Below are positions 1-38,782 of a DNA stretch of 52,299 nt, piece after piece. Source of the stretch: Acidobacteriota bacterium. GTDB taxonomy: Bacteria > Acidobacteriota > Vicinamibacteria > Vicinamibacterales > 2-12-FULL-66-21. The notes below the pieces were generated by a model that worked only from the letters and a program-made list of their open reading frames with translations, had not been told where the DNA came from and did not search any database. The translations under genes were made by a program, and so were the position numbers. The stretch's first letter is position 1, and each line of letters begins with the position of its first letter. The DNA is taken from positions 1-52,299 of the forward strand of contig JBKOZS010000228.1 of NCBI GenBank assembly GCA_046726015.1, given 5' to 3'.

Positions 1-2396
<2,396 letters not shown>

Positions 2397-2424
2397 GTGG
2401 TCGGGTATTATCTGCGGGCTGCGC

Positions 2425-3525
2425 ATGCGCCGCAATCTTCCAGTCTATTTTTGTGAGTTCGCCGGGACGGCGATCATGCTGTTTATCGGCATCAGCGCCG
2501 TGGCGTTGATGTGGGCGCCAGGGTCACCGATGCCCACGATGTCGAATCCGATGCTCCGTCGGCTCGCGACGGGCATCCTGTTCGCCGGTGGCGCGACGCT
2601 CGTCGTCTACTCGCCGCTGGGGCAGCGAAGCGGAGGACACATCAACCCCGCGGTCACGCTGGCCTTCTGGCGAATGGGCCAGGTGTCGACCCGCGATGCC
2701 GTCGCCTACGTGATCGCGCAGTTTGCGGGCGCGCTCGTTGGCGCATTTGCCGCCGGGCTCGCGTGGCGCGAGCTCACGCCAGCGATTCAATATGCCGTCA
2801 CCATACCGGGCGATGGCTATTCGACACTGTTCGCGCTGGTCGCGGAGACGATCATCACGTTCCTCCTCGTGTTCACGATTTTCGTCTGCGTGAACAAGCC
2901 GTCGATCGCCCCACGCACCGGCATCATCGCAGGGGCGCTCGTCGCCCTCCTCGTGATGGTCGAAGCGCCCGTTTCGGGCACGAGCCTTAATCCCGCGCGG
3001 TCGCTTGGACCGGCCATCATGGTGCCGCTCTATCGCGACATCTGGATCTATTTCGTGGGCCCATGCATCGGCGCGGTCATCGCCGTGGCGGCCTACACGC
3101 AGCAGTGGGGCGGTGGCACGGTGTGCGCGAAGCTCTATCACACGGAGAAATACCGCTGTCCATTCGACTGCTGCGGATATCGCCTGGTGTCCGCCGGCGA
3201 GACGGTCATGCGCCAGGGGGAACTCGGCGACGAGGCTTACGTCATCGAGCGAGGCGTCCTCGACGTGTTGCGGGATCGTGCGGGCGCGACCCCGCTCTCG
3301 CTGGCCAGGCTGAGCAAAGGGGACTGGGTCGGAGAAATCAGTTTGCTCCTTGACGAGCCCAGGTCCGCGACCGTCATCGCGGTATCGGACGCGCAGCTGC
3401 GCAGGGTCGCCAAGAAGGATTTCGGCCGCATGCTGGCCAGCGATCCCGAGCGAACACAGGAACTGCTACGGCAACTCGCTCGACACGTCAAAGAGTCGAC
3501 GAGACGCCTGGTAGAGAGGACATGA
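2425..3525 (+). CDS. MIP/aquaporin channel fused to a C-terminal cyclic-nucleotide-binding domain
   Basis: Track ORF 2344..3525; I prefer the ATG at 2425 ([22 protein letters not shown], a typical MIP N-terminus). Both NPA boxes are present ([27 protein letters not shown]). A Cys-rich linker ([10 protein letters not shown]) follows, then a cNMP-binding beta-roll with a phosphate-binding cassette ([21 protein letters not shown]). Confidence 0.85.
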
Positions 3526-3529
3526 GCGG

Positions 3530-4339
3530 ATGCGCGTGCGTTTCTGGGGTGTGCGAGGGTCGGTGCCGTGGGCCGTACCCAACGCCATTGGTCACGGCTG
3601 CAACACGCCCTGCGTCGAACTGCTCGACGAGCGCACCGGCGGGATCCTCATTCTCGATGCCGGGTCCGGCATTGTCGGCGTCAACCCTGCGGCGGTCGCG
3701 CCGGCGCCACAGCCCGTCTCGCTGCTGCTGACGCACTATCACTGGGATCACCTGCTCGGTCTTCCATTCTTTGCGACGCTGTATCAGCCCGGGTGGGACC
3801 TGACGATCCACACGCCGGCGCTCGCGTCACACGACCCATCGTGGCTCGACACGATGTTCAAGTCACCGTTTTTTCCCGTCCCGTACCAGCACCTCCCGAA
3901 CCGTCCCGGGGTGAACCTGGTGACGCGGGGCGAGCTCGGGATTCCGGGATTCGACGTGACGGCATGTCCGCTGAACCATCCTGGCGGCGCGCTCGCGTAT
4001 CGCATTCGCGGCCTGACCGGCGATTTCGTCTACGCCACGGACCACGAGTTCGGCGACCCCGCGTTCGACGAGCCGCTCGCCGATTTCGCGCGAGGGGCGG
4101 CGGCGATCGTACTGGACGCGCACTTCACGCCGCAGGAATTACCGCAGCATCGTGGATGGGGACACAGCGACTGGCGGCAGTGCGCGGAGTTCGCCGCACT
4201 TAACGATATCGGGGGCCTGTGGCTGTTTCATCACAAGCCGGGGCGGTCGGACGAAGAACTCGTCAGGATTCGGGCAGATGCCCGCCGAATCTTTGCCGCG
4301 ACCGAGACAGCAAGTGAAGGGGAAGCGCTGCAGTTGTAG
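3530..4339 (+). CDS. MBL-fold metallo-hydrolase (possible phosphodiesterase)
   Basis: 269 aa. Carries the HxHxDH metal motif in LLLTHYHWDHLLGLPFF, the N-terminal FWGVRGSVP, and later NHPGG and DH/HH ligand positions. It starts 4 nt after the stop of the aquaporin fusion. Confidence 0.8.
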   Translation: MRVRFWGVRGSVPWAVPNAIGHGCNTPCVELLDERTGGILILDAGSGIVGVNPAAVAPAPQPVSLLLTHYHWDHLLGLPFFATLYQPGWDLTIHTPALASHDPSWLDTMFKSPFFPVPYQHLPNRPGVNLVTRGELGIPGFDVTACPLNHPGGALAYRIRGLTGDFVYATDHEFGDPAFDEPLADFARGAAAIVLDAHFTPQELPQHRGWGHSDWRQCAEFAALNDIGGLWLFHHKPGRSDEELVRIRADARRIFAATETASEGEALQL

Positions 4340-4362: not shown

Positions 4363-6144
4363 CTAGCGCCGCAGCTCCTGGATTTCAGGATTTCTTGGCA
4401 GCTTCAAATACGGCAACCGCACCGAGCGGCCGTTGCTGTTCACCATGAAGCTGTTGTCGACGCGCAACTCGTCAGGCGGATGGAACCCTTCGCTCCCGAA
4501 CTGCGACACGTAGTCGTCCTGCTCGACGCCGTCGCCGCTGACGCCAAGGCCTCCAATCAGGCGATCGCCGCGATAGAGCGGCACGCTGCCCGGGAACCAC
4601 ACGATGCCGCTCTGATTCAGGAACGTGCGATTACCGCCGCGCGAGGGTCCTGGACCCTCCGTGCACGGGTTCCTGGAGTCGTAGACGTAAAGATCGAACC
4701 ACGGGCCAGGGCGCGGATGATCGTCACGCTCTTCGAGCTCCTCCTCGCGGTCGATGCCGGGAGGGAAGAGCGGCTGACCGGCGAAGCTGATGGTCCGCGC
4801 CGTCAGCGCCCATCCGCGGCCGGCAGGCGGCTCAGGCGTCCACGTGTACTGCTCTCCCGCGCCATTCTGCGCAATCCCGCGCAGCACTTCGTACCCCTCA
4901 CGCGTGCTGAAGTAGTACGAGTTCCGCGCCTTCGTCATCGCGACGTCAGAGGAGAAAATGGTTCCATCCGCCATGCGATACAGCGCCAGGATGGTTCCGG
5001 TCTCGTCGGAGACGCTGAGCGTCATGCGCGACGGCTGGTTGATCGGCAGCCGGATCATGGCGCGCGTGCGGAATGCGACTTCGACCGATCGGTCGATGAT
5101 CTGGCGAACTTCGTCAACCGTGAGGCCTCCAGCTACCGTGCTGGCACGCGGGCCCAGCACGTAACCCTCCGGCGCCTGGATGCCGTCACGAGGTTCGACG
5201 ATGAAGCGGCCGCTTGTAATCTGGCCAGGCGACGAACCGGTCGGCCGTCCTTGCAGCGCGCGCCGGATGCACGGGATGTTGGTGCAGCCGCCGAAGAACG
5301 GCAGCCGGATGCCGTCAACATACACCGCGCCCGGAGCGCCGAGTGGTTCGTTGAAATCCAGCCCGCGCCCCGCACCCGCCGCCGCGAGTGTTGCGGCGTA
5401 TTCCGCATGATCCGGCGGCACACCCGCGACGCCGACACCTCCTACGACCTTGCCGCCGCGGTAGATTGGGATGCCGCCGGGATTGACCGGCACCGCGTTG
5501 AGTAGATCCTGGCCGGTGTCGAACACATCGGCCTTGCCTGTCGTGATTCCGACGGAAGACAGTGGCGCGCCCGTTTCGTCGAGCATCGGCCCGCCGCGCG
5601 CGCACCCGCGCGTGTCTGATGGTTCGCAGGGAAGCGGCGTGCTGGCCGCGCCTTCGCCAAACACACCGGCAATGGACCTGGGCCGCGGGAACGGCGCGTT
5701 GAACACTGCGTCGCCGAGCTGGTCGACCCTGCAGCCGCGGTTGATGTTCTCGACGCCGTAGAGCGCGGCGTTCGGCGTGTTCTGCACGCCCGGCGGATAG
5801 TGAATTCCGCTGATGAAGCGCACGGTCCGTGACGACAGCGGCGCCTGGTCGTTCGCGAACATCGCCCCGGTGCGCGCAAGCGTGACCGCGATGTCCGGCG
5901 TTCGCTCGTCGGCCTGCGGCCGGGCGAACACGCCAAGGATGCTGCCGGTGCGATCGACGACCGCCGCACCGAGCGTCTCGTTGCCGAGCGCCGTCGCGGC
6001 CACGGTCAGGATGGCCCGCACATCGTCGGCGGTCAGGATCTGCGCGGGCCCTCCCGCGCTATCCGATGGAGTGTTCTGCGATCTGAGCGTCGCGGGGCCA
6101 AGGACGATGAGGGTAGTGACAGCGATGATTGTGAATAGGCGCAC
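4363..6144 (-). CDS. secreted protein with two GlcG/HbpS-like (DUF336) heme-binding-type domains
   Basis: 593 aa with a GTG start and a signal-like N-terminus (MRLFTIIAVTTLIVLGPATLRSQ). It has two copies of the DUF336 C-terminal signature (GGIPIYRGGKVVGGVGVAGVPPD and GSVPLYRGDRLIGGLGVSGDGVEQDD). Each follows an LTxDxVRxI...AVVDRTG / SVSDETG type beginning. Confidence 0.7.
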   Translation of the reverse strand: MRLFTIIAVTTLIVLGPATLRSQNTPSDSAGGPAQILTADDVRAILTVAATALGNETLGAAVVDRTGSILGVFARPQADERTPDIAVTLARTGAMFANDQAPLSSRTVRFISGIHYPPGVQNTPNAALYGVENINRGCRVDQLGDAVFNAPFPRPRSIAGVFGEGAASTPLPCEPSDTRGCARGGPMLDETGAPLSSVGITTGKADVFDTGQDLLNAVPVNPGGIPIYRGGKVVGGVGVAGVPPDHAEYAATLAAAGAGRGLDFNEPLGAPGAVYVDGIRLPFFGGCTNIPCIRRALQGRPTGSSPGQITSGRFIVEPRDGIQAPEGYVLGPRASTVAGGLTVDEVRQIIDRSVEVAFRTRAMIRLPINQPSRMTLSVSDETGTILALYRMADGTIFSSDVAMTKARNSYYFSTREGYEVLRGIAQNGAGEQYTWTPEPPAGRGWALTARTISFAGQPLFPPGIDREEELEERDDHPRPGPWFDLYVYDSRNPCTEGPGPSRGGNRTFLNQSGIVWFPGSVPLYRGDRLIGGLGVSGDGVEQDDYVSQFGSEGFHPPDELRVDNSFMVNSNGRSVRLPYLKLPRNPEIQELRR

Positions 6145-6175
6145 GCGCCGCCGAGTTTAACACCACCGGCGCAAA

Positions 6176-6333
6176 ACGAAGGAAGCCCGGAGGTAACGGA
6201 TTCCGACACGAAGCAGCGAAGACAACGGAGGAAACGGAGCCTCTTAAGTGTGTTTAGAGTTTTTGACTCCGTTCCCTTCGTTTCCTCCGTTGCTCCGTTT
6301 CTAAGGTCCGTTCTCTTCGTCTACCTCCGTTTG
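6176..6333. repeat. long imperfect intergenic hairpin built from AACGGAG / CTCCGTT motifs
   Basis: The left half carries cggaggta, taacgga, gcgaaga, caacggagg and aacggag. The right half carries ctccgtt, cctccgttg, ctccgtt, tccgttc, tcttcgt and tacctccg. At least four blocks pair in nested order around a ~26-nt AT-richer loop (ctcttaagtgtgtttagagtttttga). It lies between the stop of the EF-hand gene (6334) and the start of the GlcG-like gene (6144). Confidence 0.55.
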
Positions 6334-7311
6334 TCACCGGGGCCCGAACCCTTCACGATAACCAAGACGGAACCCTGCACGATAGCCCGCCTGGTATTCC
6401 TGGTAGCTGCCCATCTGTGGCTGGTAGCCGGAGTCGGCGTTCTCGAGTTCCCGTTGTCCCTCGAGATCCCAGTGCCGCGGCTTGTCTTCCTTGCCGGCCT
6501 GGATGCCCTCCTGCCGTCCTCGCTCGTAGCCGTTGCGATACGCCACGGATTGCTGCCCGAGGTTGGTTGCCGGTGGGTTCTCGAACTCGCGCCGTGACAC
6601 GCGTCCATCGTGGTCGGCGTCGAGCCGATCGAACGCCGCCGTGTTCCAGTGCCACTCATCCCGCGAGATCGCGTCGTCACCGTTGATGTCGACGCTGCGG
6701 AACTCGTCGCGCACGACGTTGTCGTTACCCACCGCCTCCGCGCGCGTCAGGACGCCGTCGCCGTTCGCGTCGAGCGCCCGGAAGACGGCGGTGCTGCCGT
6801 GCCATTCGTCACGCGTGAGGCGGCCGTCGCGATTGGTATCGAGGTCCCAGAATCGCTCCTCACGATCGTCGTCGTCGGAACTCCCCATGAATTCGGCACG
6901 CGTCAGCGAGCCGTCGCGGTTGCGATCGAGGCGCCCGAACAGTTCGGGATCGCCGTGCCATTCCTTCGCGGACAGGCGACCGTTGCCGTCGTGATCGAGG
7001 CTGGAGAAGCGCGCCTCGCTCCAGTCGTCGTCGCGCGCGATCGAATCCGCGATGTCGCGATCGTCCCACCGCGGGACGCGGCGTCCGCCCGGACGCACTT
7101 CATCGCCGGACAGTTTGCCGTCGCCGTTCCAGTCGTGATTGCGAAACGATCGATCGTTGCCGCGCCACTCGTCGCGAGTGATAACGCCGTCACCGTTCGC
7201 ATCCATACTCTGGAAGCGCATCACCGTGTTGCCACGGCTCTGGTCCTGTGCGGCAGCGACCGGTGGAACGCTGAGGCAGAGTGCAGCGAAAAACAGCGTC
7301 GTCGATCTCAT
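6334..7311 (-). CDS. secreted multi-EF-hand calcium-binding protein (8 DxDxDG loops)
   Basis: 325 aa with a signal peptide (MRSTTLFFAALCLSVPPVAAAQ). Eight canonical loops are present: DANGDGVITRDE, DWNGDGKLSGDE, DHDGNGRLSAKE, DRNRDGSLTRAE, DTNRDGRLTRDE, DANGDGVLTRAE, DINGDDAISRDE, DADHDGRVSRRE. Confidence 0.85.
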   Translation of the reverse strand: MRSTTLFFAALCLSVPPVAAAQDQSRGNTVMRFQSMDANGDGVITRDEWRGNDRSFRNHDWNGDGKLSGDEVRPGGRRVPRWDDRDIADSIARDDDWSEARFSSLDHDGNGRLSAKEWHGDPELFGRLDRNRDGSLTRAEFMGSSDDDDREERFWDLDTNRDGRLTRDEWHGSTAVFRALDANGDGVLTRAEAVGNDNVVRDEFRSVDINGDDAISRDEWHWNTAAFDRLDADHDGRVSRREFENPPATNLGQQSVAYRNGYERGRQEGIQAGKEDKPRHWDLEGQRELENADSGYQPQMGSYQEYQAGYRAGFRLGYREGFGPR

Positions 7312-7352
7312 CGCTTCCTCCTCAGCCTGGAAGGAGCAAGCGGTGTACCGGC

Positions 7353-8006
7353 TTATTCAAACGGAAGAGGTGTTTGGGTGAGGATGGGAATGCGCAGGCG
7401 TCCTGCGCCATTGGTGGTGAACAATGGTTCCTGGCCGATGCGGCTGACGGCTTCGTCAGCGGCGCGATTGAACGCGTCGAGCAGATCGAGCGACCGTGTG
7501 CCGGGACGCCGCGGCCGGCGCAGTTGCCGCAGCAACGCGCCGGTGAAAAATCCATGGACGCTGTTTTCGCGTGCCCGCCCGTCAGACGCGCACGATGCGA
7601 GCGTAACCGGGCGTTGCGTGTCCGGCAACTTCGCCATCGCGGCGTCGAGCTTGCGCATACGATCGTCGGCGTGGCACGTGTCGACAATGAGGACGCGCAG
7701 CTTCGCGTCTGCCTTCTGCGCGAGCGCATCCACGATCGCGTCGATCGCGAACACGTGACCGCTCCAGTAAATCATCAGCAGGTCGAGATCGGGGATCGAG
7801 GCGCAGTGCGAGAGATGGGCATCGACCGCGGCGGGCGTGGCCTGCGCGCCCGTCAAGCATCGGTTCCGCTCCGCGCGCCAGTATCCAAGCTGCGCGAAGG
7901 TCCACGACATGCCGACTGCGTCGCGCTCCGCGGAACGCACGGCTGCGCCGTTCGACTCGCGGTTCACGCCGATCGACAGCAGGTGATAGCGGAACTCGCG
8001 CGCCAT
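7353..8006 (-). CDS. caspase-like (peptidase C14 fold) domain protein
   Basis: Track ORF 7353..8078; I prefer the ATG at 8006 (MAREFRYHLLSIGVN). The layout is HLLSIGVN...DA..M...LGY...L.G..AT...V...DLLMIYWSGHV...KLRVLIVDTCHAD. This matches the His (SGH) and Cys (D.CH) dyad spacing of caspase/metacaspase domains. There is no signal peptide and GC3 is high. Family assignment is by motif only. Confidence 0.5.
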   Translation of the reverse strand: MAREFRYHLLSIGVNRESNGAAVRSAERDAVGMSWTFAQLGYWRAERNRCLTGAQATPAAVDAHLSHCASIPDLDLLMIYWSGHVFAIDAIVDALAQKADAKLRVLIVDTCHADDRMRKLDAAMAKLPDTQRPVTLASCASDGRARENSVHGFFTGALLRQLRRPRRPGTRSLDLLDAFNRAADEAVSRIGQEPLFTTNGAGRLRIPILTQTPLPFE

Positions 8007-8196
8007 GTGCGGCCGCTCACTCTTTCGGCCGGAGCGCGGCCGAGCTTTACCGGTTCCGTTCAGTGTCGCCGCGTCCATCCAGGTCCGTGTCCTCTTTCAA
8101 CATCGTTAGCGCGCACACAAACGTGACCCTGCCCGCCCCTGCGCGCACGGGTTTTCAGTGACTTACGGGTGGTATGGATAGTGAAATGCACCCGGC

Positions 8197-10251: not shown

Positions 10252-10634
10252 TTCTGTGCTGCTTCAGGGCCGCCGCCGCCGGCGCCCGGGATACGGCCGA
10301 TCAGCACGCGCCGGATCCAGCGTTCCCAGTCGTAAACGGCCGTTGGATTCGCGTCGATGTCGACCCGGACGTCGATACCAGCCGCCTCGATGCGGTCGAG
10401 TGGAATCCTTACCGGTTTGCCGTCACCGACGCCGAGCCACCGCTCCAGCGCGCGCGCGCGATCCCCAAGCCGCTCGCTGATTCGCATCGCCAGCGTCGGA
10501 AGTCCGAGTTCGAGTGCCGCCACGCGCGGCGGACGCCCGCGCCGCAGCACGAGGACGATGCCGTCGACTTTGCCGATTTTGCGATTCAGCCTGTCGAGGA
10601 CCTGGTTGTCGAGAAGATCCCGGTTCAGGTGCAT
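10248..10634 (-). CDS. PRC-barrel-like small protein
   Basis: This is the C-terminal 128 aa of track ORF 10248..11228, starting at MHLNRDLLDNQVLDRLNRKIGKVDGIVLVL. The upstream 198 aa are an R-rich shadow overlapping the NRAMP gene. Its ATG shares one base with the NRAMP stop (TGATG). Confidence 0.5.
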   Translation of the reverse strand: MHLNRDLLDNQVLDRLNRKIGKVDGIVLVLRRGRPPRVAALELGLPTLAMRISERLGDRARALERWLGVGDGKPVRIPLDRIEAAGIDVRVDIDANPTAVYDWERWIRRVLIGRIPGAGGGGPEAAQK

Positions 10635-11854
10635 CAGCTGCCTCCGGCAATCTGCAGTGGAATCGCCACAAGTGCGAGAAGGAACCCCATCACGGTGACG
10701 GCCGACACGACGATGTTCGAGATCCAGCCGTTGGTGTACGGGCCCAGGTAGTCTTCGTCGTTCATGATCACCAGCAGCGGCAGCACGAGCGCCGGCATGA
10801 CGACAACGTTGAACGCCATCGCCAGCATGGTGATCTTCAGCGGGTTGAAGCCGATGGCCACGATGATCGACGCGACGAGAATGGCAATCGTGTAAGTTGC
10901 CGCGAATCGCGCGTCGTCGGCAGGCTGCAAATCTTCGCTCCAGTTCCACCCGAACGCCTGCGCCAGCGTGTAACTCAGGTTCAGCGAAACCTGGAGCGCC
11001 GCACCGACGCACGCGATCCCGAGCGATAACGCGAACAGCGTCGCTCCCAGCCGCGCACCGAGCGACAGCGACAGAGCGGCCTGCATCTCCTCGAACGTGT
11101 TCGCATCGACGCCGCGCGGGAACAGCGTCATCGCGCAGACGATCAGCATGGCGGCGCCGACACAGCCGCCGAACGTCATCCCTACGCCTGCGGCGATCCT
11201 GTTCACCGGAAGATCTTCCGCCTTCCATTTCTCTTCCACCGCTCCCGCAGAGTAGAAATTCAGCACGTATGGGCTGAGCAGCGAGCCAAGCATGCTGACA
11301 GCGAGAAACCAGTACTGCGCGGGCTTATCGGGCGGCAGCGTCGGCTTGAGCCCGGCGACGATCTCGCGGAGCGAAGGGCCCTCGGTCCACGCAGCCCAGA
11401 CGAAGCAGAGCGTGATCAGTCCGAGCAGCGCCACGCCCTCCTCGATCGCCTCGAACTTGCCGCGCCACAGGAGCAGCCAGATCGCGAAGCCGACGGGAAG
11501 CGCCCACCACGGAAATCCGATCCCCGTCAGCAGCTTGATGGCCACGGCCACGCCGCCGATCTCGGCGGCGAGCACGGTGACATCGAGAAACAACTCCGAG
11601 AACAACGGGAGCGCGTGGTAGCGAAAGCCGAAACGCTCGCGGATGGCATCGGCCAGCGTGTGCTTGCTGATGGCCGCGAGTCGGCCGAGCATCTCCGAAA
11701 GGAACACGATGCAGAGCGTGCCCAGGGCGGCAACCCACAGCAGCCGGAACTCGAACACGGCGCCGGCCTGCGCAAACGTGGCGATGGTGCCGGCATCGAG
11801 GAAGCCGCCGATGGCAGTGACGACCCCAAGGGCGATTTTAAGGAACCCTTTCAT
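10634..11854 (-). CDS. NRAMP-family transporter, non-canonical metal-site motifs
   Basis: 406 aa with a polytopic NRAMP-like sequence. The TM1 DPGN motif reads LDAGT, and the TM6 A..MPH region reads SLLSPY. I therefore do not call it mntH. Confidence 0.8.
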   Translation of the reverse strand: MKGFLKIALGVVTAIGGFLDAGTIATFAQAGAVFEFRLLWVAALGTLCIVFLSEMLGRLAAISKHTLADAIRERFGFRYHALPLFSELFLDVTVLAAEIGGVAVAIKLLTGIGFPWWALPVGFAIWLLLWRGKFEAIEEGVALLGLITLCFVWAAWTEGPSLREIVAGLKPTLPPDKPAQYWFLAVSMLGSLLSPYVLNFYSAGAVEEKWKAEDLPVNRIAAGVGMTFGGCVGAAMLIVCAMTLFPRGVDANTFEEMQAALSLSLGARLGATLFALSLGIACVGAALQVSLNLSYTLAQAFGWNWSEDLQPADDARFAATYTIAILVASIIVAIGFNPLKITMLAMAFNVVVMPALVLPLLVIMNDEDYLGPYTNGWISNIVVSAVTVMGFLLALVAIPLQIAGGS

Positions 11855-12630: not shown

Positions 12631-13578
12631 CTACGTAACCAGATGAAGCGCCTTGCTTGCGATGGCGGTGTCCTGAAAGCCGACGCCGGTCAGATCGGCA
12701 ATCGTGATCTGATCGTTGCGGGTCCGTCCTGGTTTGCGTCCGGCCACGACCTCGCCCAGTTCGCCATGGACGTCGCGACGCGTCACGAGGCCAGCGTCGA
12801 GCGCATGTCTCAGTTCCCCAAACGCGGCGCACTGCGCGAAGCGATCGACGACGACGAGGTCGGCGCGATCGAGGCAGGCGGCCTCGAGTTCCTGCTTGCC
12901 GGGAGCATCGGCGCCGACCGCGGTGACGTGCTGGCCAGGATGGAGCCACTCGGCTTTCACGAGCGGCGCGCGCGACGGCGTCGCCGTGATCAACACGTCC
13001 GCTTCGCGGCAGACGGATTCCGCGTCCGGCGCGGGTGCCGCGTCGTACCCCGCAAGGCGCATCTCATCACAGTAGGCCTGCACGTGCGCGCGGTTTGGAC
13101 TCCACACGACGAGACGCAGGAACGCCCTGACAACCCGAAGGCAATGCACCTGGTGACGCGCCTGCAGGCCGCTGCCGAGCACCCCGACGATGGCGACGGT
13201 GGAGGGGGCGAGGACGTCGGCGGCGATGGCGCCGGCGGCGCCCGTGCGGACATCCGTGAGAAAGCCGTTGTCGAACAGCATCGCCACCGGCAGTCCGGTC
13301 GTGGCATCGAACACCGCCATCAATCCGGATCCGCTTGGTAAGCCCTTTGCGGGATTGTCGTAGAAGCCGCTGGCGACCTTCACCGCGATGTGGGGCACTC
13401 CCTCGATCAACGCCGTCTTCACGTGGAACTCACCGTGCGCCTGGGGCACCTCGAGGTTGATGACGGCCGGCACGTGCGTGCGCCCTTCGCCGTCCGCGCG
13501 GAACGCCTCACGCATCGCGTCGACGGCGTGCTCCGCGGTGATCACGTGGCGCAGTGCCGTCTCGTCGATGGTCCGCAT
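12631..13578 (-). CDS. ornithine cyclodeaminase / mu-crystallin family protein
   Basis: This is the C-terminal 315 aa of track ORF 12631..14220, starting at MRTIDETAL. It has a Rossmann motif (VGVLGSGLQA), DVRTGAAGA and TAVGAD blocks. The N-terminal 214 aa of the track ORF are a shadow overlapping the methyltransferase gene in another frame. Confidence 0.85.
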   Translation of the reverse strand: MRTIDETALRHVITAEHAVDAMREAFRADGEGRTHVPAVINLEVPQAHGEFHVKTALIEGVPHIAVKVASGFYDNPAKGLPSGSGLMAVFDATTGLPVAMLFDNGFLTDVRTGAAGAIAADVLAPSTVAIVGVLGSGLQARHQVHCLRVVRAFLRLVVWSPNRAHVQAYCDEMRLAGYDAAPAPDAESVCREADVLITATPSRAPLVKAEWLHPGQHVTAVGADAPGKQELEAACLDRADLVVVDRFAQCAAFGELRHALDAGLVTRRDVHGELGEVVAGRKPGRTRNDQITIADLTGVGFQDTAIASKALHLVT

Positions 13579-13580
13579 GA

Positions 13581-14213
13581 TTACGCGAGAGGTTTCCGGC
13601 CGCGCGCGATGAAGATGGTGATGGACGCCTGAGTGCCGCAGTTCGACGTGGGACAGCATGTCTCCTGCGTGTCGCCGACCGTCACCTCCTCGAGGCCGGC
13701 ATCGAGGAACCACGATGCGACGTCGCCACGGGCGAACCCGAGCCAGCGATCGTGCTGCTCGGTCCGCAGCCACTCGTGCGTGTGCGTGTCGGCATCGGTG
13801 ATGACCAGCGTGCCGCCAGGTTTCAGGACGCGGGCCCACTCGCGGATCGCGCCGGCGGGATCCTCCGCGTGATGCAGCACCATATTGGCGAGCACCGCGT
13901 CGACTTCTCTCTCTGCCAGCGGCAACCGCTCGCCGTCCCCGCGTCGCGCCTCGAACGGATGATTCGCGAACTTCGTACGCGCCTGGTCGAGCATGGCGTC
14001 TGAGATGTCGATGCCGATCACTCGCGCGCCAGCGTCGAGCGCGGCCTCGGCAAGAAAGCCGGTGCCGATACCAACATCGGCGACGACCATTCCGGGCCCG
14101 ACGCGGGCCGCCGCGATTGACGCGCGACGTACACCGTCGCCAAAGAATCGCTGCCGCATCTCGTCCCAGCGGCTGGCCACGTCGTTGAAATACTCGCGCG
14201 TATCGTCCGACAT
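13581..14213 (-). CDS. class I SAM-dependent methyltransferase
   Basis: 210 aa with the SAM motif I VADVGIGTGFLAE, plus VIGIDISDAML and LKPGGTLVITD. Confidence 0.85.
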   Translation of the reverse strand: MSDDTREYFNDVASRWDEMRQRFFGDGVRRASIAAARVGPGMVVADVGIGTGFLAEAALDAGARVIGIDISDAMLDQARTKFANHPFEARRGDGERLPLAEREVDAVLANMVLHHAEDPAGAIREWARVLKPGGTLVITDADTHTHEWLRTEQHDRWLGFARGDVASWFLDAGLEEVTVGDTQETCCPTSNCGTQASITIFIARGRKPLA

Positions 14214-14263
14214 ATGTCACCGGTGCCTGACGTCACTCAGAGGCCGGGGAGGCCACTTAGCGC

Positions 14264-14659
14264 TTACTTCGGAATGACGGCGACCGCATCAATCTCCACG
14301 CGCATCCCGGCGCCGGGCAGGTTCGAGACCTCCACCGTCGTGCGCGCCGGGCGGTGGTTGCCGAACATGCGGCCATACACCTCGTTCATCCGCGGGAATT
14401 CCTTGATGTCGACGAGGAAGACGCCGCAGCGCAGGACGTGCTGGAGACCGGAACCGGCCTCCTCCAGGATCGCCGCGATATTCTTCAGCACCTGTTCTGT
14501 CTGTGCTTCGACGTCGGGACCGACCAGCTGGTTCGTGGAGGGGTCACGTCCCCCTTGCCCTGAGACGAAGACGAGGTTCCCCGCAATGGTCGCCGGGGCG
14601 TACGGACCCGCGGGGGCCGGCAGCCTGGCGCTGGTCACCAGTTGCACTTGATCGCTCAT
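14264..14659 (-). CDS. RidA/YjgF family reactive-intermediate deaminase
   Basis: 131 aa. GPYAPATIAGNLVFVSGQ, QTEQVLKNIAAILEEAG and PARTTVEVSNLP...VEIDAVA are typical of the family. Confidence 0.9.
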   Translation of the reverse strand: MSDQVQLVTSARLPAPAGPYAPATIAGNLVFVSGQGGRDPSTNQLVGPDVEAQTEQVLKNIAAILEEAGSGLQHVLRCGVFLVDIKEFPRMNEVYGRMFGNHRPARTTVEVSNLPGAGMRVEIDAVAVIPK

Positions 14660-14725
14660 CCCGCCATCCTATTCGAGGAGACGCGCCGGCCCTAGTAGAA
14701 CCGACCCGTCGCGCGTGAACAGCCA

Positions 14726-15328
14726 ATGACCTTACCGAACCCGGGCATCCTGCTGGTGGCCGCTGTCCTCAGCGCCGCACCCGTTGCACCGCCGCGCGCG
14801 CAGGGAGACTCCGCGCGCGAAGCGCTGAACATCGGGCGCACGCACGATCAGGCCCTCTATGACGCGTTCAGCGCCGGCTACCGTCTTACGCCGTCGGGCA
14901 TCGTCGACAGCATCGAGGTGATTACCGAATTCCGCCGCGCCGTGCTCATCGTCCGCGAGCGCGCGATGCAGGGGGAATACTCCTTCACAACGCACGACCT
15001 TGCCGCCGCGATGACGCCGTTTCGGGGCCTCGTGACGTTCATCGCGGACGTGCGCCTGCACCCGCTCAACACGTTTGCCGGTCCGCCGGCCTACGATCTC
15101 TACGTCCGGACCGGTCCCGACACGAAGCCCGTCGCGGCGCCCAAGATCATGCGCGACCCGGTATATCCACCGGGAAGCGGGCCGGGGAGCGCGATGACGT
15201 CGATTCGCCTGGAAGCATCGTTCCCCCGCGCCGAGATCGCCGGGGCAAGCGAGCCAATGCTCATCCTGAACGACGAGCGCGGGAACGTCATCTGGCAGAC
15301 CCGGCTCGACCTCGCGCGCTTTCGATAA
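14726..15328 (+). CDS. hypothetical secreted protein
   Basis: 200 aa with an ATG start and a signal-like N-terminus (ILLVAAVLSAAPVAPPRAQG). Amino-acid composition is sensible. The 265-aa minus ORF 14732..15529 is its same-register antisense shadow. Confidence 0.5.
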   Translation: MTLPNPGILLVAAVLSAAPVAPPRAQGDSAREALNIGRTHDQALYDAFSAGYRLTPSGIVDSIEVITEFRRAVLIVRERAMQGEYSFTTHDLAAAMTPFRGLVTFIADVRLHPLNTFAGPPAYDLYVRTGPDTKPVAAPKIMRDPVYPPGSGPGSAMTSIRLEASFPRAEIAGASEPMLILNDERGNVIWQTRLDLARFR

Positions 15329-27355: not shown

Positions 27356-28600
27356 ATGTTTCGTTCGATCGGCGGGTACACCGCGGCAGCACTGCTGCTG
27401 TTCGGCACGGCGCACGCAGACGCCCAGGAGGCAGGGCATCAACAGCACCACATGCAGTCGACTGGCTCCGAGTGGACGTTCATGCAGGATGGAATCGTCT
27501 ACGGCCTCTTCAATCACCAGGGAGGACCGCGTGGGGGAGACGAATTCAAGGTGCCCAACTGGTGGATGGGAATGTGGTCGCGTCCAACCGGCAAATCACA
27601 GCTCACGTTGACGACGATGTTGAGCCTGGATGCGGCGACAGTGGGCACGCGTGGCTATGGCGAGATCTTCCAGGTGGGCGAGGCCGTTGACGACCGTCCG
27701 CTGGTGGACCGCCAGCATCCGCACGACCTGTTCATGCAACTCGCGGCGATCTGGCGCGTGCCGTTGAGCGACCGAACGGGGCTCACGCTCGCGGGTGCGC
27801 CATCAGGCGAGCCGGCTCTTGGGCCTGTTGCCTTCATGCATCGACCATCGGCGGCGGACATACCGTTGGCGCCGCTGGGTCATCACACCTTCGATTCAAC
27901 GCACGTCGCCTTCGGCGTCGTCACGGCGGCGGTCGATCGCGGGCCGTGGACCTTCGAGGGATCCGTGTTCAACGGGCGAGAGCCGGACCAGGATCGATGG
28001 AACTTCGATTTCGGCAGAATGGACTCCGTTTCTGGCCGGATCTGGTTCAAGCCGAACGCAAACTGGGATCTCCAGGTCTCGACCGGGCATCTCAAGGATC
28101 CAGAAGAACTCGAACCCGGCAACATTCAGCGCACGACCGCATCCGTCGCCTGGATGAACCGCGGCACTGACGACTTCAGCGCCGTCACGGTCGGGTATGG
28201 CGTCAACAATACCGATCACGGCACGCGGCACGCCGTGTTTGCAGAGGGCACGCGCAGCTTCAGCATGGCGGCCGTGTTCGGGCGGGCCGAGGTCGTCCAG
28301 GTGGAAACGGCACTGCTGCTGAGCGGGCAGGTCCATTCCGAGCTGAGCGCCAGGAGCGATACCGTCGGGGCCTTTACGGTGGGCGCCGTGCGCGATCTGC
28401 CACACTGGCGAGGATTCGAGGCGGGCCTTGGAGCCGGCGTGACGCTTTACGCCGTGCCCGGGATCTTGAAGCCGACACATGGATCGAGGCCGGTGTCGTT
28501 CCAGGTCTTTTTCCGCGTACGCCCGCCGGTCAGCCGGATGGGGCGAATGTGGAACATGCGCATGTCGGCGCCGGTCAATCACGCCATGCGGCATGAATGA
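27356..28600 (+). CDS. His-rich periplasmic/outer-membrane-like protein associated with the Cu ATPase
   Basis: 414 aa with a signal peptide ([15 protein letters not shown]). The mature N-terminus is [11 protein letters not shown]. It has a DRQHPHD block, alternating beta-like segments and a His/Met-rich tail ([17 protein letters not shown]). Its stop overlaps the ATPase ATG (ATGA). The fold assignment is an inference. Confidence 0.55.
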
Positions 28601-31041
28601 GGAAGATGGCAGAACCAGCACAAGCGCCGGAATCTGAGATGGTGCTCGATCCGGTCTGCGGGATGACGATCGATCCCGCCGACGCCGCGGGGTCGTGGGA
28701 ATACAAGGGACAGAAGTACTACTTCTGTCACGAGAGCTGCCTCGCGCGCTTCAAGACACATCCCGAGTCGTTCCTGGCGCCAGCCCTGCCGTCACAAGCG
28801 AGCCCGCCACCTCCAGCGGGGACGACGTACGTCTGTCCGATGGATCCCGAGGTGCATCAGTCGACGCCCGGCGCGTGCCCGAAGTGCGGGATGGCGCTCG
28901 AGCCCGACCTGTCGACGGTCGCACCAACACGCGTCGAATACACCTGCCCGATGCACCCCGAGATCGTTCGCGACCAGCCGGGCACGTGTCCGATCTGCGG
29001 CATGGCGCTCGAGCCCCGCACCGTCGTTGCGGAAGACGCGCCGAATCCCGAGCTCGTCGACATGACGCGGCGGTTCTGGGTCTCCGCCGCGCTGGGTCTC
29101 CCCGTTTTCGTCCTGACGATGGGCGACATGGTGCTGGGCATGGGACTCGGTGGCCGCATCGACATGGCGGTCACGAACTGGATCGGATTGATCTTCAGCA
29201 CGCCTGTCGTCCTGTGGGGAGGCTGGCCGTTCTTCGTGCGCGGCTGGCAATCGATCGTCAATCGCCACGCGAACATGTTCACGCTGATCGCGCTTGGCGT
29301 GGGGGCCGCTTACATCTTCAGCATTGCAGGCACGCTCGTGCCGCAGGCGTTTCCTCCAGGGTTCCGCGTGCACGGCGTCGTCGAGACGTATTTCGATACC
29401 GCCGTCGTGGTGGTTGTGCTCGTGCTGCTCGGCCAGGTGCTGGAGTTGAGGGCGCGCGGACGGACGAGCGCCGCGCTGCGCGATCTGCTGCGGCTCGCGC
29501 CCAACACCGCGCATCTGGTGCGCGCCGATCGCGACGAGGACGTCCCGCTCGCGTCGGTCGCAAAGGGGGATGTCCTGCGCGTGCGGCCGGGTGAGCGCAT
29601 CCCTGTCGACGGGATCGTGCTCGAAGGGCGCAGCACCGTCGATGAGTCGATGCTGACCGGCGAGCCGATCCCGGTTGAAAAGGAGCCGGGCGCGCGCATC
29701 ACGGGCGGGACGATGAACGGCACCGGCAGCTTCGTCATGCGTGCGGAGCGGGTCGGCGCCGACACGCTGCTCGCGCAAATCGTGCGCATGGTGAGCCAGG
29801 CTCAACGGACACGCGCGCCGATTCAGCGGCTTGCCGATCGCATCGCCGCCTACTTCGTCCCGGCCGTCGTGATCGTTGCGATGGTGGCCTTGGTGGCATG
29901 GGCACTGTTTGGTCCGGAGCCCCGCCTTGCGCACGCGCTGCTGAGCGCGGTCGCGGTACTCATCATCGCGTGCCCGTGCGCGCTCGGCCTGGCTACGCCA
30001 ATGGCGGTGATGGTGGGCACGGGGAGAGGCGCACAGGTGGGCGTCCTGATCAGGAACGCCGATGCGATCGAGCGTCTCGAGCAGGTCGACACACTGATTG
30101 TTGACAAGACGGGCACGTTGACGGAAGGCCGGCCGCGCCTGGTCACCATCCAGCCAGTGCCACCGTTCAGCGAGCAGGACGTCCTGGCCATCACGGCGGC
30201 ACTCGAGCAGGCGAGCGAGCATCCGCTTGCCGCGGCAATCGTGGCTGGCGCGCGGGAACGCAACGTGCCCATACCAGCCGCATCCGCCTTCGAGAGCGTC
30301 ACCGGCCAGGGTGTGCGCGGCACCGTCGACCGGCACGACGTGCTCGTCGGCAACGTGAGACTGCTGACCGACGCGGGCATCGACACGATGTTGCTCGACG
30401 CGAAGGCCCGTGCGCTGCGTGCCGCCGGGCAGACGGTCGTGCTGGCGGCCATCGACCGGAAACTGGCGGGCCTCATTGGCGTGGCGGACCCGATCAAGCC
30501 CTCTACACGCGAGGCCATCGCGATGCTGCACCGGGAGGGACTGCGGATCGTGATGGTGACGGGGGACAATGCCGTGACCGCGAACGCGGTTGCCGAGGCG
30601 CTTGGCCTTGACGACGTGATCGCGGATGTGCTGCCCGATCAAAAGCGCGAGGTGGTCCGGCGTTTCCAGAGTGAAGGGCGCGTGGTCGCGATGGCGGGCG
30701 ACGGCATCAACGACGCCCCGGCGCTCGCGCAGGCGGATGTCGGCATCGCGATGGGCACCGGCACCGACGTCGCGATCGAGAGCGCGGGCATCACGCTGGT
30801 GCGCGGCGACCTCCGCGGCATCGTGCGCGCGCGACGGCTCAGTCGCGCGACCATGAAGAACATCCGGCAGAACCTGTTCCTGGCGTTCGTCTACAACGCC
30901 ATCGGTGTGCCGGTGGCCGCGGGTGTGCTCTATCCGTTCACGGGCGTGCTGATCAGCCCGATCTGGGCCAGCGCAGCGATGACGTTCAGTTCCGTGTCGG
31001 TAATCGCGAATGCATTAAGGCTTCGACATAGTGAGCTCTAG
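28597..31041 (+). CDS. copA: copper(I)/silver-type P1B ATPase with a YHS/TRASH domain and two CPxCGM metal-binding modules at the N-terminus
   Basis: 814 aa. N-terminal modules: [10 protein letters not shown]...[12 protein letters not shown] (YHS/TRASH), then YVCPMDPEV...[10 protein letters not shown] and YTCPMHPEI...[10 protein letters not shown]. Core motifs: [21 protein letters not shown] and GDGINDAP. The YN (FVYNAIG) and MxxSS (AMTFSSVS) residues are typical of Cu(I) pumps. Confidence 0.9.
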
Positions 31042-36341: not shown

Positions 36342-36728
36342 ATGTTTACCTTGGACGCCTGCGGCCGGGGTAAAGTTGCTGCTGTGATTGCACTTGTCTG
36401 GATGTTCGATATCCGCCCGGGAATGACGGAAGAGTTTGAACGCTTCTACGGCGCTGACGGGGAGTGGACCGCACTGTCCCGCCGGAGCCGATCGTTTCTT
36501 GGGAGCTCGTTCCTGAAAGACATCTCGTCCGAGACCCGCTACCTCCTGGTTGAGTACTGGGGCGAGATGGTCGTCTACGAAAAGCACGTGGCAGGGTTCA
36601 AGCAGCCGATCGAGTTGCTCCAGCGCGAACGCGACCGGTTCGTGGAACGCGTCGACGCACTTGGCGTGTTCAATGCACTCGACACGCCGGCACGCGTTGG
36701 TCCGACGTGGTCACGTCGTGGCAGTTAG
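36342..36728 (+). CDS. ABM/Dabb-fold (antibiotic biosynthesis monooxygenase-like) small protein
   Basis: 128 aa; the start may be the internal GTG at 36384 or the ATG at 36402. ALVWMFDIRPGMTEEFERFYG...GSSFLKD...RYLLVEYWGEMVVYEKH fits the ferredoxin-like ABM pattern. Its 3' end overlaps the convergent NRAMP gene by 18 nt. Confidence 0.5.
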   Translation: MFTLDACGRGKVAAVIALVWMFDIRPGMTEEFERFYGADGEWTALSRRSRSFLGSSFLKDISSETRYLLVEYWGEMVVYEKHVAGFKQPIELLQRERDRFVERVDALGVFNALDTPARVGPTWSRRGS

Positions 36729-38099
36729 CACGGCGTAGTACCCCATCACCACCAGGATGATCGCCGTGGTCACCCACAGCGCGATCGTCGTCAGCGGTGC
36801 CGGTGCGATCTCCGGCGGCAGGCGACGATGGCGCAGGTAGATCGCGCCGATGCCAATTGCCGGTAGCATCATCGACTGCACGATGCCGCCGAGCATCACC
36901 ATGGTAACCGGGGATCGCATCGTGAAGAAAAGCGTGACCGGCACGAGGGTAAGGACGACGACGAACCGGTTGCGTAGCGTGACGCGCCGTTCGTGGTTGT
37001 CGGCATCGAAGCGTCCCATCAGCTGGAACATGTCGGCGAACAGGCGCGAATGCGCCGCGGTGGACGCGAACACGGTTCCATAGAGCGTCGCGACCGCGCC
37101 GAGATAGAACAGCCACAGCGCCCAGCCGCCGAGCGTCTGCGTGTAAAGGTTCGAGAGCACCGGGATCATGTCCTTGGCCGCTGGAACCAGTCCCATTCCG
37201 TGCAGCACTCCGGCGCCGAGCAGGTAGAACGCGACCGTCGCGGCCGTGTAGATGATCATCGATACGGCGATGTCGACGTGCATCACGCGGATCCAACCGC
37301 GCGCGCGACGCAGCCAGCCGCCGCTTCCGTCCCTCGCTCCCGTGTACTGCGCATAGCCCTTTTCCACGCACCAGTACGGGTACATGAAGAGTTCGCTGGC
37401 GCCAACGCCAGTAATGCCGAATACCGCCACCGCCATGCCGAGTCCAGCGGCAGGCAACTCGAATCCGAGGCCGCCTGCCACCGCGTTCCACGAGAAGAAG
37501 CGCGGCATGTTCATGAGGATGAGCGCAGCGAGAACGGTGAGCATGGTGAAGAGTGCGACCTTCACCATCGCGATCCGCTCGACACGTGCGTACCCGCCGC
37601 CGAGAAGTAATGCGAGCGTCAATGCCAGGAACACCAGCACCCACGCGGCGACCGGCACGGCAGGGACCAGCAGGTTCATGACCTGCGAGACGCCTCCGTA
37701 CATGCCGCCGACTTGCAACAGCGTTGCGCCAACCATGCAGGCCCACGCCCACACCAACCAGTTCACGCGTAACACGCGGGGACCGGGTACCTGGTTCAAT
37801 GCCGCCAGGCCGCTCATCCCGGTGGCAATCGTGTAGCGTCCGAGCTCCGCCTGGATCACGGGCTTGCACAGGCAACTGAGGAGCACGACCCAGAGCGCCG
37901 TATAGCCCGCCTGCGCGCCAAGCGTCGTTGTCGCAATCAATTCACCGGATCCGACAATGGAGGCGGCCAGCACCATTCCCGGACCGATGCGCTTCAGCGT
38001 GTCGCCGAGACGAACGGGCGGTTCTTCGGTTGCCGAGGGATCGAGAACGTAGGGATTGCGTGGAGATGGCGGTCGTTCCCGTGCCGTTGCCGTTGTCAT
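36711..38099 (-). CDS. NRAMP-superfamily transporter (non-canonical, lacks DPGN)
   Basis: Track ORF 36711..38207; I prefer the ATG at 38099, which forms an ATGA overlap with the cutC stop. It is polytopic. GPGMVLAASIVGSGELIATTTLGAQAGY replaces the DPGN-containing TM1 motif. Confidence 0.8.
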   Translation of the reverse strand: MTTATARERPPSPRNPYVLDPSATEEPPVRLGDTLKRIGPGMVLAASIVGSGELIATTTLGAQAGYTALWVVLLSCLCKPVIQAELGRYTIATGMSGLAALNQVPGPRVLRVNWLVWAWACMVGATLLQVGGMYGGVSQVMNLLVPAVPVAAWVLVFLALTLALLLGGGYARVERIAMVKVALFTMLTVLAALILMNMPRFFSWNAVAGGLGFELPAAGLGMAVAVFGITGVGASELFMYPYWCVEKGYAQYTGARDGSGGWLRRARGWIRVMHVDIAVSMIIYTAATVAFYLLGAGVLHGMGLVPAAKDMIPVLSNLYTQTLGGWALWLFYLGAVATLYGTVFASTAAHSRLFADMFQLMGRFDADNHERRVTLRNRFVVVLTLVPVTLFFTMRSPVTMVMLGGIVQSMMLPAIGIGAIYLRHRRLPPEIAPAPLTTIALWVTTAIILVVMGYYAVLTATT

Positions 38100-38782
38100 G
38101 ATGTCTCCGCCAGCTCCCGCAACCGGGCAACTCGCCCGGCCGACACCGCCGACTCCGGATCTCCGTCGGCGCGTGCGGCACGCCCGACATGTACTTCGCT
38201 GACGCAACCTGTTTGTGCGATGAGGGCGAGCATCTGTTCGTCGACGGCTGAGCCCGCAATAATGATGAGGCGCCCACGCGCCCGCGCGGCGTAGCCGCGA
38301 AGCCGCTCGCAGCGGTCAGCGGGCGTGCCAGTGCCGCCGCTGGTCAAGATGCGATCGATCTGCGGAACCGCGCCCAGCCGATCGATGGCATTCAACGGAT
38401 CGCGCAGCTGATCGAAGGCGCGATGGAACGTCGCCTTGACCTTGGGCGCTGCCTCGAGCGCGCGAACTGTGTCTGCTACCCCGGGCTCGCATCCATTGGC
38501 AAAGCCGACGACGACGCCATCGACCGCGTCCGCCGCGAACGTCGCGATCGAGTCGCGCAGCGCCGAGAGCTCGTCCGGGGTTGTCGAGTATCCGGCGTTG
38601 CCCCTCACCATCACGCGCAACGGCAGCGACACGGCCTCGGCGATATCGCGGACGAGCGATACCGGAGGCGTCAGGCCGCCGTCGCGTATCGCGCGCACGA
38701 CTTCCAGCCGGTCCGCGCCACCGCGCGCCGCTGCCCGGGCGTCGGCAACGCTCTGCACGATCACTTCGAGCAGAAGTGCCAT
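38096..38782 (-). CDS. cutC: CutC-family copper homeostasis protein
   Basis: 228 aa with a TIM-barrel CutC pattern: LEVIVQSVADARAAARGGADRLEV, GGLTPP, PLRVMVR, GVVVGF, TFHRAFD, ILTSGG. Confidence 0.85.
   Translation of the reverse strand: MALLLEVIVQSVADARAAARGGADRLEVVRAIRDGGLTPPVSLVRDIAEAVSLPLRVMVRGNAGYSTTPDELSALRDSIATFAADAVDGVVVGFANGCEPGVADTVRALEAAPKVKATFHRAFDQLRDPLNAIDRLGAVPQIDRILTSGGTGTPADRCERLRGYAARARGRLIIIAGSAVDEQMLALIAQTGCVSEVHVGRAARADGDPESAVSAGRVARLRELAETS

Follow-up and report, generated by a model that had tools for sequence, protein, structure and literature searches.

Cation channels gated by cyclic nucleotides, such as MloK1, SthK and the CNG and HCN channels, are tetramers with a C-terminal cyclic-nucleotide-binding (CNB) domain attached to their last transmembrane helix. 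Aquaporins, members of the MIP family, are known to be regulated through phosphorylation, pH, Ca2+, calmodulin and trafficking. Several gated aquaporins (SoPIP2;1 through loop D, yeast Aqy1 through its N-terminus, and AQP0 through calmodulin) provide precedent for closure of a MIP from the cytoplasmic side, and these proteins, like AQP1, lack a canonical CNB domain and are controlled by phosphorylation, pH, Ca2+, calmodulin or mechanical cues. A cGMP-activated cation conductance of AQP1 is disputed; to our knowledge no other earlier observation connects a MIP with cyclic nucleotides, and we know of no MIP with a canonical second-messenger-binding domain. Here we describe a gene that joins these two elements in a 52,299-nucleotide (nt) stretch of DNA from a Vicinamibacterales member of the Acidobacteriota (contig JBKOZS010000228.1; hereafter the window). 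It encodes a MIP channel, a short tail rich in Cys and His, and a CNB domain in one chain. On balance, we favor the view that this protein is a channel regulated by a cyclic nucleoside monophosphate (cNMP) and serves a module for the breakdown of glucosides or osmolytes.

An earlier note on this DNA, made from the sequence alone, had described a single uninterrupted open reading frame (ORF) joining a complete MIP channel with both NPA boxes to a CNB beta-roll with an intact phosphate-binding cassette, and all of this is borne out (Table 1). The ORF matches MIP (PF00230) over residues 8-224 with 144.5 bits (Pfam cutoff 25), and its C-terminal part passes the threshold of cNMP_binding (PF00027) over residues 255-340 with 66.4 bits (cutoff 27.5). 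In the public gene call on the source contig (P0001, 349 aa; L and P numbers are our working designations for loci and proteins), the protein begins at Met18; homologues that align over the full length support the ATG at 2425 as the start instead. The fusion is also widely conserved. In a search of 5.8 billion proteins, more than 120 clusters at 90% identity were found that are 64-87% identical to it and 344-385 aa long, and every one of them except P0077 (324 aa) contains both Pfam domains. The clusters derive from assemblies of NCBI, JGI, ENA and Logan; those that bear a name belong to Vicinamibacterales or Acidobacteria. A scan of one genome per GTDB species, for which an alignment of the tail and CNB domain was used as query (a single-protein query gave no matches), revealed the full MIP-tail-CNB chain at 24 loci: 11 in Acidobacteriota (mostly Vicinamibacterales), 11 in Gamma- and Betaproteobacteria (Nevskia, Xanthomonas sp., Rhodanobacteraceae and Burkholderiales), one in Bdellovibrionota and one in Bryobacteraceae. 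The fusion has thus persisted in at least three phyla. Clustering at 50% identity leaves only about three full-length fusion clusters (P0121, P0122 and P0124), and with so many host taxa this indicates a clade that is narrow in sequence space and broad in taxonomy. Public annotation names these proteins "aquaporin Z" or "aquaporin". A literature search found no paper on a MIP-CNB fusion or on the Cys tail and, in line with the earlier note, no characterized cNMP-gated bacterial aquaporin.

Table 1. Features of the fusion locus, in nucleotide positions of the window.
Feature	Position	Strand	Basis or remark
MIP-tail-CNB fusion ORF	2425-3525	+	366 aa plus stop, no interruption; Pfam, homologue alignment, AlphaFold2
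MIP channel domain, aa 1-228	2425-3108	+	Pfam, AqpZ/GlpF alignment, Foldseek
NPA boxes, N74-P75-A76 and N189-P190-A191	2644-2652 and 2989-2997		
Selectivity-filter codons F53, V177, T186, R192	2581-2583, 2953-2955, 2980-2982, 2998-3000		AqpZ/GlpF alignment
Conserved Cys/His tail	3124-3174	+	Alignment of fusion proteins; lies between transmembrane helix 6 and beta-roll
CNB domain, aa 252-366	3178-3522	+	Pfam, PDB sequence matches, predicted secondary structure
Phosphate-binding cassette, aa 303-317	3331-3375		15 residues
Fusion stop codon TGA	3523-3525		Followed by GCGG (4 nt)
Metallo-beta-lactamase (MBL)-fold hydrolase, 269 aa, RNase Z/YhfI/PhnP type	3530-4339	+	Pfam, NCBIfam, AlphaFold2, Foldseek; ATG at 3530
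MBL motif H69-Y-H-W-D-H74 (HxHxDH)	3734-3751		
GH63-like (MGH1-like) cytoplasmic glycosidase, partial	3-2396	-	Pfam; overruns window start
Gap between divergent glycosidase and fusion start codons, 28 nt	2397-2424	.	Sequence

The membrane domain is a MIP in fold as well as in sequence. The top Foldseek matches of the fusion model in the PDB are the AqpM structures 2evu and 3ne2 (33-34% identity), the TM-scores to solved aquaporins lie between 0.7 and 0.84, and the AlphaFold2 helices fit the six-helix MIP architecture; no solved chain in the PDB was found by Foldseek to span both the MIP and the CNB domain. Both NPA boxes and R192 are identical in all 18 aligned homologues. When the protein is aligned with AqpZ and GlpF of E. 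coli (sequences from NC_000913.3), F53, V177, T186 and R192 fall at the four positions of the selectivity filter. An HMMER alignment to AQP4 had put Thr49 at filter position H2, and this assignment was dropped, as the AqpZ/GlpF alignment puts Phe53 there with the helix free of gaps. The protein is set apart from AqpZ by Val177, rather than His, at position H5 and by a score of 79 bits against the AqpZ model NF003838 (cutoff 256), and from GlpF by its F/V/T/R filter in place of W-G-F-R and by the absence of the GlpF insertions that lengthen loops C and E. Its filter does fit the AqpM-like pattern of Phe, an aliphatic residue, Ser or Thr, and Arg, and can be set beside that of AqpM, which we take to be F62/I187/S196/R202 in AqpM numbering. 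As judged from these residues, the pore is AqpM-like and neither AqpZ-like nor GlpF-like, with a predicted constriction wider and more hydrophobic than that of AqpZ, so that water and possibly glycerol-sized neutral solutes could pass. AqpM shares with the fusion the MIP fold, both NPA boxes and the type of constriction; unlike the fusion, it ends after the sixth transmembrane helix, without a Cys3-His tail and without a ligand-binding domain.

The CNB domain retains the features expected of a nucleotide-binding site. Its cassette follows the G-E-x(8)-R-[ST]-A pattern with G303, E304, R313, S314 and A315, and the cNMP-contact residues G303, E304, R313 and A315 are invariant in 18 sequences, as are the matching columns in a divergent set reaching down to 43% identity. 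The best PDB sequence matches of residues 248-350 are CNB domains of PKG and of PKA R-subunits (E about 1e-21), and the domain looks functional and competent for nucleotide binding. In the AlphaFold2 model (mean predicted local-distance difference test score, pLDDT, 80.6; predicted template-modeling score, pTM, 0.80), transmembrane helix 6 ends at residue 228 and is followed by a non-helical tail at 229-251 (block-mean pLDDT 73-88), the beta-roll at 252-329 and two C-terminal helices at 330-365; there is no N-terminal alpha-A helix before the beta-roll. The pTM of the whole chain suggests a defined arrangement of the domains. The closeness to the CNB-gated cation channels is partial. Their phosphate-binding cassette is closely alike (GE..L....PRSATV), whereas their membrane part has the K-channel fold with one central pore and that of the fusion is a six-helix MIP with one pore per subunit, and the fusion has no C-linker and a Cys3-His knuckle in place of the alpha-A helix. 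No ion-channel family was matched, and the protein does not belong to the CNG, HCN or MloK1 channels.

A working model can be built on this architecture. The fusion would be a MIP of the tetrameric type whose cytoplasmic C-terminus holds the Cys3-His knuckle and then the CNB domain. Binding of cAMP or cGMP to the beta-roll would cause the C-terminal helices (330-365) to repack, the rigid 23-residue tail would relay this change to the cytoplasmic mouth of the pore, and flux would be set by the level of the second messenger. That the protein is the first of its kind, a second-messenger-gated aquaporin in which a cNMP opens or closes the MIP pore via the Cys3-His knuckle, is a more specific proposal that we put forward tentatively. 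If it were true, bacteria that degrade osmolytes after rewetting would be able to switch the flux of water or glycerol directly and post-translationally, and tetramers of MIPs and of K-channels would have arrived at one and the same ligand-sensing ring by convergence. It is also conceivable, and in our estimation unlikely, that the channel is constitutive and that the CNB domain acts as a membrane-anchored cNMP receptor or buffer, as an element of assembly or localization, or as a binder of some other ligand. Within the CRP/FNR superfamily, CNB folds are known that bind different ligands or no ligand at all; the fusion lacks the N-terminal relay helix; and in a related MIP (P0138) the CNB domain lies far from the pore, after an NDH-2-like domain. 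Against such roles stand the invariance of the Gly-Glu and Arg-Ser/Thr-Ala residues that contact the cNMP, a CNB domain that abuts the last transmembrane helix through a rigid and invariant tail, and the persistence of the fusion in at least three phyla.

The genomic surroundings of the fusion point to its physiological setting. Its conserved partner, overlooked by the earlier note, is the GH63-like glycosidase that lies divergently upstream. About 798 of its approximately 890 residues fall within the window (ATG at 2396, N-terminus MPSRTRL...), and it matches MGH1-like_GH (PF22422) with 83.7 bits (cutoff 27). When the neighbors of fusion loci were compared by tblastn, a glycosidase homologue (66-79% identity) adjoined the fusion at all 14 acidobacterial and all 11 proteobacterial loci with an informative flank, and at 25 of the 27 such loci overall. 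Three gene orders occur: the divergent order of the window, fusion followed by glycosidase and a short-chain dehydrogenase/reductase (SDR), and glycosidase followed by SDR and fusion. Divergent spacing of about 29 nt recurs in L001, L046 and L047, and as only 28 nt separate the two start codons in the window, each promoter should lie within the coding region of the other gene; no sigma-70-like promoter was detected near these genes, nor any Rfam match. In 10 of the 11 proteobacterial loci the glycosidase is followed by the SDR, which matches glucose 1-dehydrogenase (NF006493) with 302 bits and exceeds the cutoff of the related model NF005559. This 268-aa gene had been taken for the MBL-fold gene by its length, an assignment that was discarded. 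Outside the three-gene module the proteobacterial flanks are not conserved and contain no glucosylglycerol synthesis genes.

Related arrangements that involve stand-alone MIPs of this subfamily are found beyond the fusion clade. Plasmid2 of Fischerella sp. NIES-4106 (L049, AP018300.1 19826-23315) carries an SDR, a glycosidase, a MIP with a CAKLHH...CIFRC tail and a GMC oxidoreductase; Nostoc edaphicum pNe_3 (L050, NZ_CP054695.1 84056-90022) carries a MIP, a glucose 1-dehydrogenase, an SMP-30 gluconolactonase and a glycosidase; and Deinococcus sp. AB2017081 (L052, NZ_CP140099.1 10535-14436) carries a universal stress protein, a glucose 1-dehydrogenase, a GH15 enzyme and a MIP. Taken together, these loci indicate a recurring module made of an (alpha/alpha)6 glycosidase, genes for glucose oxidation and a MIP of this subfamily. 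All three are plasmid-borne in cultured strains, and several of their genes overlap. In the Nostoc edaphicum MIP (L050 5686-6489), the second NPA box reads SPA, and the tail, TGKLFH..RCIFKN, lacks the first and last Cys. Among seven loci compared (L001, L041, L017, L019, L023, L027 and L028), the approximately 890-aa glycosidase has a mean column identity of 81%; between Acidobacteriota and Proteobacteria its pairwise identity is 63-65%, against 48-59% for the MIP part. Conservation of the glycosidase above that of the channel hints at strong constraint or at lateral transfer of the module.

For comparison, GghA (Slr1670) of Synechocystis is an 885-aa GHL5 protein that, during salt down-shift, hydrolyzes the compatible solute glucosylglycerol and releases glucose and glycerol (PMC5002435, PMC6753628). 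The glycosidase described here, at 887-894 aa, is of the GghA size class and is likewise a cytoplasmic (alpha/alpha)6 GH63-like protein, a comparison that extends to size and family type only (PMC5002435), and it adjoins glucose-consuming genes and a channel through which glycerol could potentially pass. In the Deinococcus module a GH15 enzyme takes this place, and the substrate may therefore differ from that of GghA and be, for example, trehalose. With these features in mind, the fusion channel is proposed to work with the adjacent cytoplasmic glycosidase, joined in other lineages by glucose 1-dehydrogenase, in a module that would break down glucosides or compatible solutes after osmotic down-shift or rewetting, while the channel would equilibrate water or a small aglycone such as glycerol as the solute is degraded.

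Several observations weigh against a cNMP-regulated channel that serves such a module. The window ORFs that were scanned include no adenylate or guanylate cyclase. N-terminal helices relay the signal in the CNB domains of PKA, Epac and CNG-type channels, and for a CNB domain without one the path of transduction is hypothetical. AqpM-type filters conduct glycerol poorly, which weakens the idea of glycerol as the solute. The flanks of the fusion contain no glycosidase at L016 and L024, and PDB searches with the glycosidase returned nothing or, in the profile search, faint GH63 matches only. Finally, within Vicinamibacterales a local functional tie between the fusion and the MBL-fold gene, discussed below, is conceivable. 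Should regulation of the channel be confirmed, the CNB-gated channel principle would extend beyond ion channels, and with a conserved MIP-CNB chain at hand, one small bacterial protein suffices to test whether an aquaporin can be gated directly by a chemical. That the fusion keeps company with a GH63-like glycosidase and glucose oxidation genes suggests a module not described before, one that may help abundant soil Acidobacteria and other bacteria to manage water and compatible solutes through wet-dry cycles.

The earlier note proposed that the fusion may be a ligand-gated pore paired with an MBL-fold enzyme that could terminate the signal. A 269-aa MBL-fold ORF with the HYHWDH motif does begin 4 nt past the fusion stop, and the narrow gap makes it probable that the two genes are co-transcribed. 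The encoded protein matches Lactamase_B_2 (PF12706) with 55.5 bits, one of the two families that the note had named for a check, and at E <= 0.01 only PF12706 and PF00753 were found in Pfam, with no match to the class II phosphodiesterase family PF02112, the other family it had named. All NCBIfam scores lie far below the respective cutoffs: 42.5 bits for RNase Z (cutoff 293), 36.3 for the cyc_nuc_deg_phdiest model NF041851 (cutoff 400) and 27 for PhnP (cutoff 272), the automatic JGI name being a PhnP orthology term. The candidate metal ligands H69, H71, D73, H74, H150, D171, H212 and H234/H235 are invariant in 24 orthologues, and the enzyme is probably active. Foldseek matches of its AlphaFold2 model (pLDDT 84.9) include ZipD/RNase Z, YhfI, BA1088 and PhnP-family proteins, with the cyclic-mononucleotide nuclease Apyc1 at rank 42 and no class II phosphodiesterase among the top 50. 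RNase Z/ElaC, YhfI, BA1088 and PhnP (2cbn, 1y44, 6kns, 1zkp, 3g1p and 6b9v) share its fold at TM-scores of 0.65-0.76 and have in common with it the HxHxDH motif and the GHS-type His motif, while the protein is about 35 residues shorter than RNase Z chains (269 against 306-307 aa in 2cbn and 4gcw). A binuclear-metal enzyme of the phosphodiesterase type is plausible from these resemblances. A role as lactonase, by analogy with the SMP-30 gluconolactonase of Nostoc, was considered and rejected, since the fold neighbors are phosphodiesterases and the gene also occurs away from the glycosidase.

On one reading, this protein would be a dedicated cyclic-nucleotide phosphodiesterase that ends the signal locally at a cNMP-gated channel. 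In all 15 acidobacterial loci of the tblastn table, each of them with downstream flank, the MBL-fold gene starts 4-25 nt after the fusion, and the arrangement is also present in L046 and L047; the whole neighborhood is syntenic there. This pairing, the short gap that implies co-transcription, the invariant metal ligands, the closest resemblances in family and fold (RNase Z, PhnP and YhfI, with Apyc1 further down the list) and the weak NCBIfam match of 36 bits would all fit a paired terminator. The partnership nevertheless does not extend beyond the order, an outcome that the earlier note had listed among those refuting its proposal. At 13 fusion loci outside Vicinamibacterales no adjacent MBL homologue is found; one of them, L028, has a homologue of 29% identity that lies 3.5 kb off on the opposite strand. 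Conversely, three contexts contain an orthologue of 71-75% identity and no fusion: in L040 and in L041 the gene lies immediately next to the glycosidase in divergent orientation, and in L044/L045 it lies between an M16 peptidase and a pseudouridine synthase. The NCBIfam match, besides lying far under its cutoff, is below the RNase Z score of the same protein, and PF02112 is unmatched. We thus regard a dedicated terminator as improbable. The MBL-fold gene is a Vicinamibacterales-specific neighbor outside the conserved module, and in this order its product may process a phosphodiester under the same physiological circumstances. What stands of the note's proposal, and is strengthened, is the fusion half, for which the wide conservation of the chain and the invariant cNMP-contact residues speak; the half concerned with a phosphodiesterase partner is not supported.

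The segment that connects the two domains of the fusion proved more distinctive than a linker. The earlier note had pointed to a Cys-rich join of 10 residues; such a join exists, yet it covers no more than the latter half of the conserved motif C234-x4-H239-x5-C245-x4-C250, contained in a stretch of 19 residues, and its C249 is not conserved. The Cys3-His motif is invariant in 18 aligned fusion proteins and in 11 more divergent ones, and in the 18-sequence alignment no other part of the protein is as conserved as the tail, with W228, G229, T232, V233, C234, A235, K236, L237, Y238, H239, T240, C245, P246, F247, C250, Y252, R253 and L254 all invariant. It is not confined to fusions either. Of the 150 representatives listed at 50% identity, about 70 have a motif of the form CAKLxH-x(4-6)-CIFxC straight after transmembrane helix 6, and the majority of these are stand-alone MIPs 250-290 aa long; the other listed representatives are tail-less MIPs or multi-CNB proteins that match the CNB part only. 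Its presence in stand-alone MIPs indicates that the tail is older than the CNB fusion, and it marks a large, unstudied subfamily of prokaryotic MIPs. Some of the tail-bearing MIPs among P0129-P0270 carry a C-terminal fusion partner: a pair of glyoxalase/VOC domains, DM13, DoxX, or an NDH-2-like flavoprotein together with CNB.

In composition the tail looks like a small, putative metal-binding knuckle, and one could envisage it as the primary sensor of redox state, zinc or a metalloid, in a channel for a reactive solute such as H2O2, H2S, methylglyoxal or As(OH)3, with cNMP in a secondary role. Such a function would suit the best-conserved and oldest part of the C-terminal extension as well as the attachment of other tail-bearing MIPs to glyoxalase/VOC pairs, DoxX, DM13, and NDH-2-like or SQR-like flavoproteins, and conduction of gases, H2S among them, has been suggested for AqpM-type pores. 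We nonetheless deem it very unlikely: the genes that accompany the fusion clade belong to sugar catabolism rather than detoxification, and members with degenerate tails (Nostoc and Deinococcus) reside in the same module. The last alternative, a frameshift in assembly or sequencing across the join that artificially unites two genes, was raised by the earlier note as a refutation of its proposal and can be set aside, as no point was found in its favor and it is excluded by the more than 120 independent full-length clusters, by the 24 species genomes, by contigs from two other metagenomes that span the join without a gap (nt 3095-3310 and nt 3061-3379), and by the fact that the join is the best-conserved part of the protein.

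The window and its relatives have other features of note. Downstream of the MBL-fold gene, nt 4363-8078 on the minus strand encode a 593-aa HbpS-like protein, a 325-aa protein with many EF-hands and a caspase-like (Peptidase_C14) protein; this trio is syntenic in L001, and a JGI contig has the HbpS-like and caspase-like genes without the EF-hand gene. The window further encodes two metal transporters of the Nramp type, at 10634-11854 (-) and 36711-38207 (-), and, at 28597-31041 (+), a P-type ATPase with the metal-binding domains YHS and HMBD. In L040, a protein encoded at 13492-14807 beside NADH-dehydrogenase-like genes combines cNMP_binding with several 4Fe-4S ferredoxin domains.

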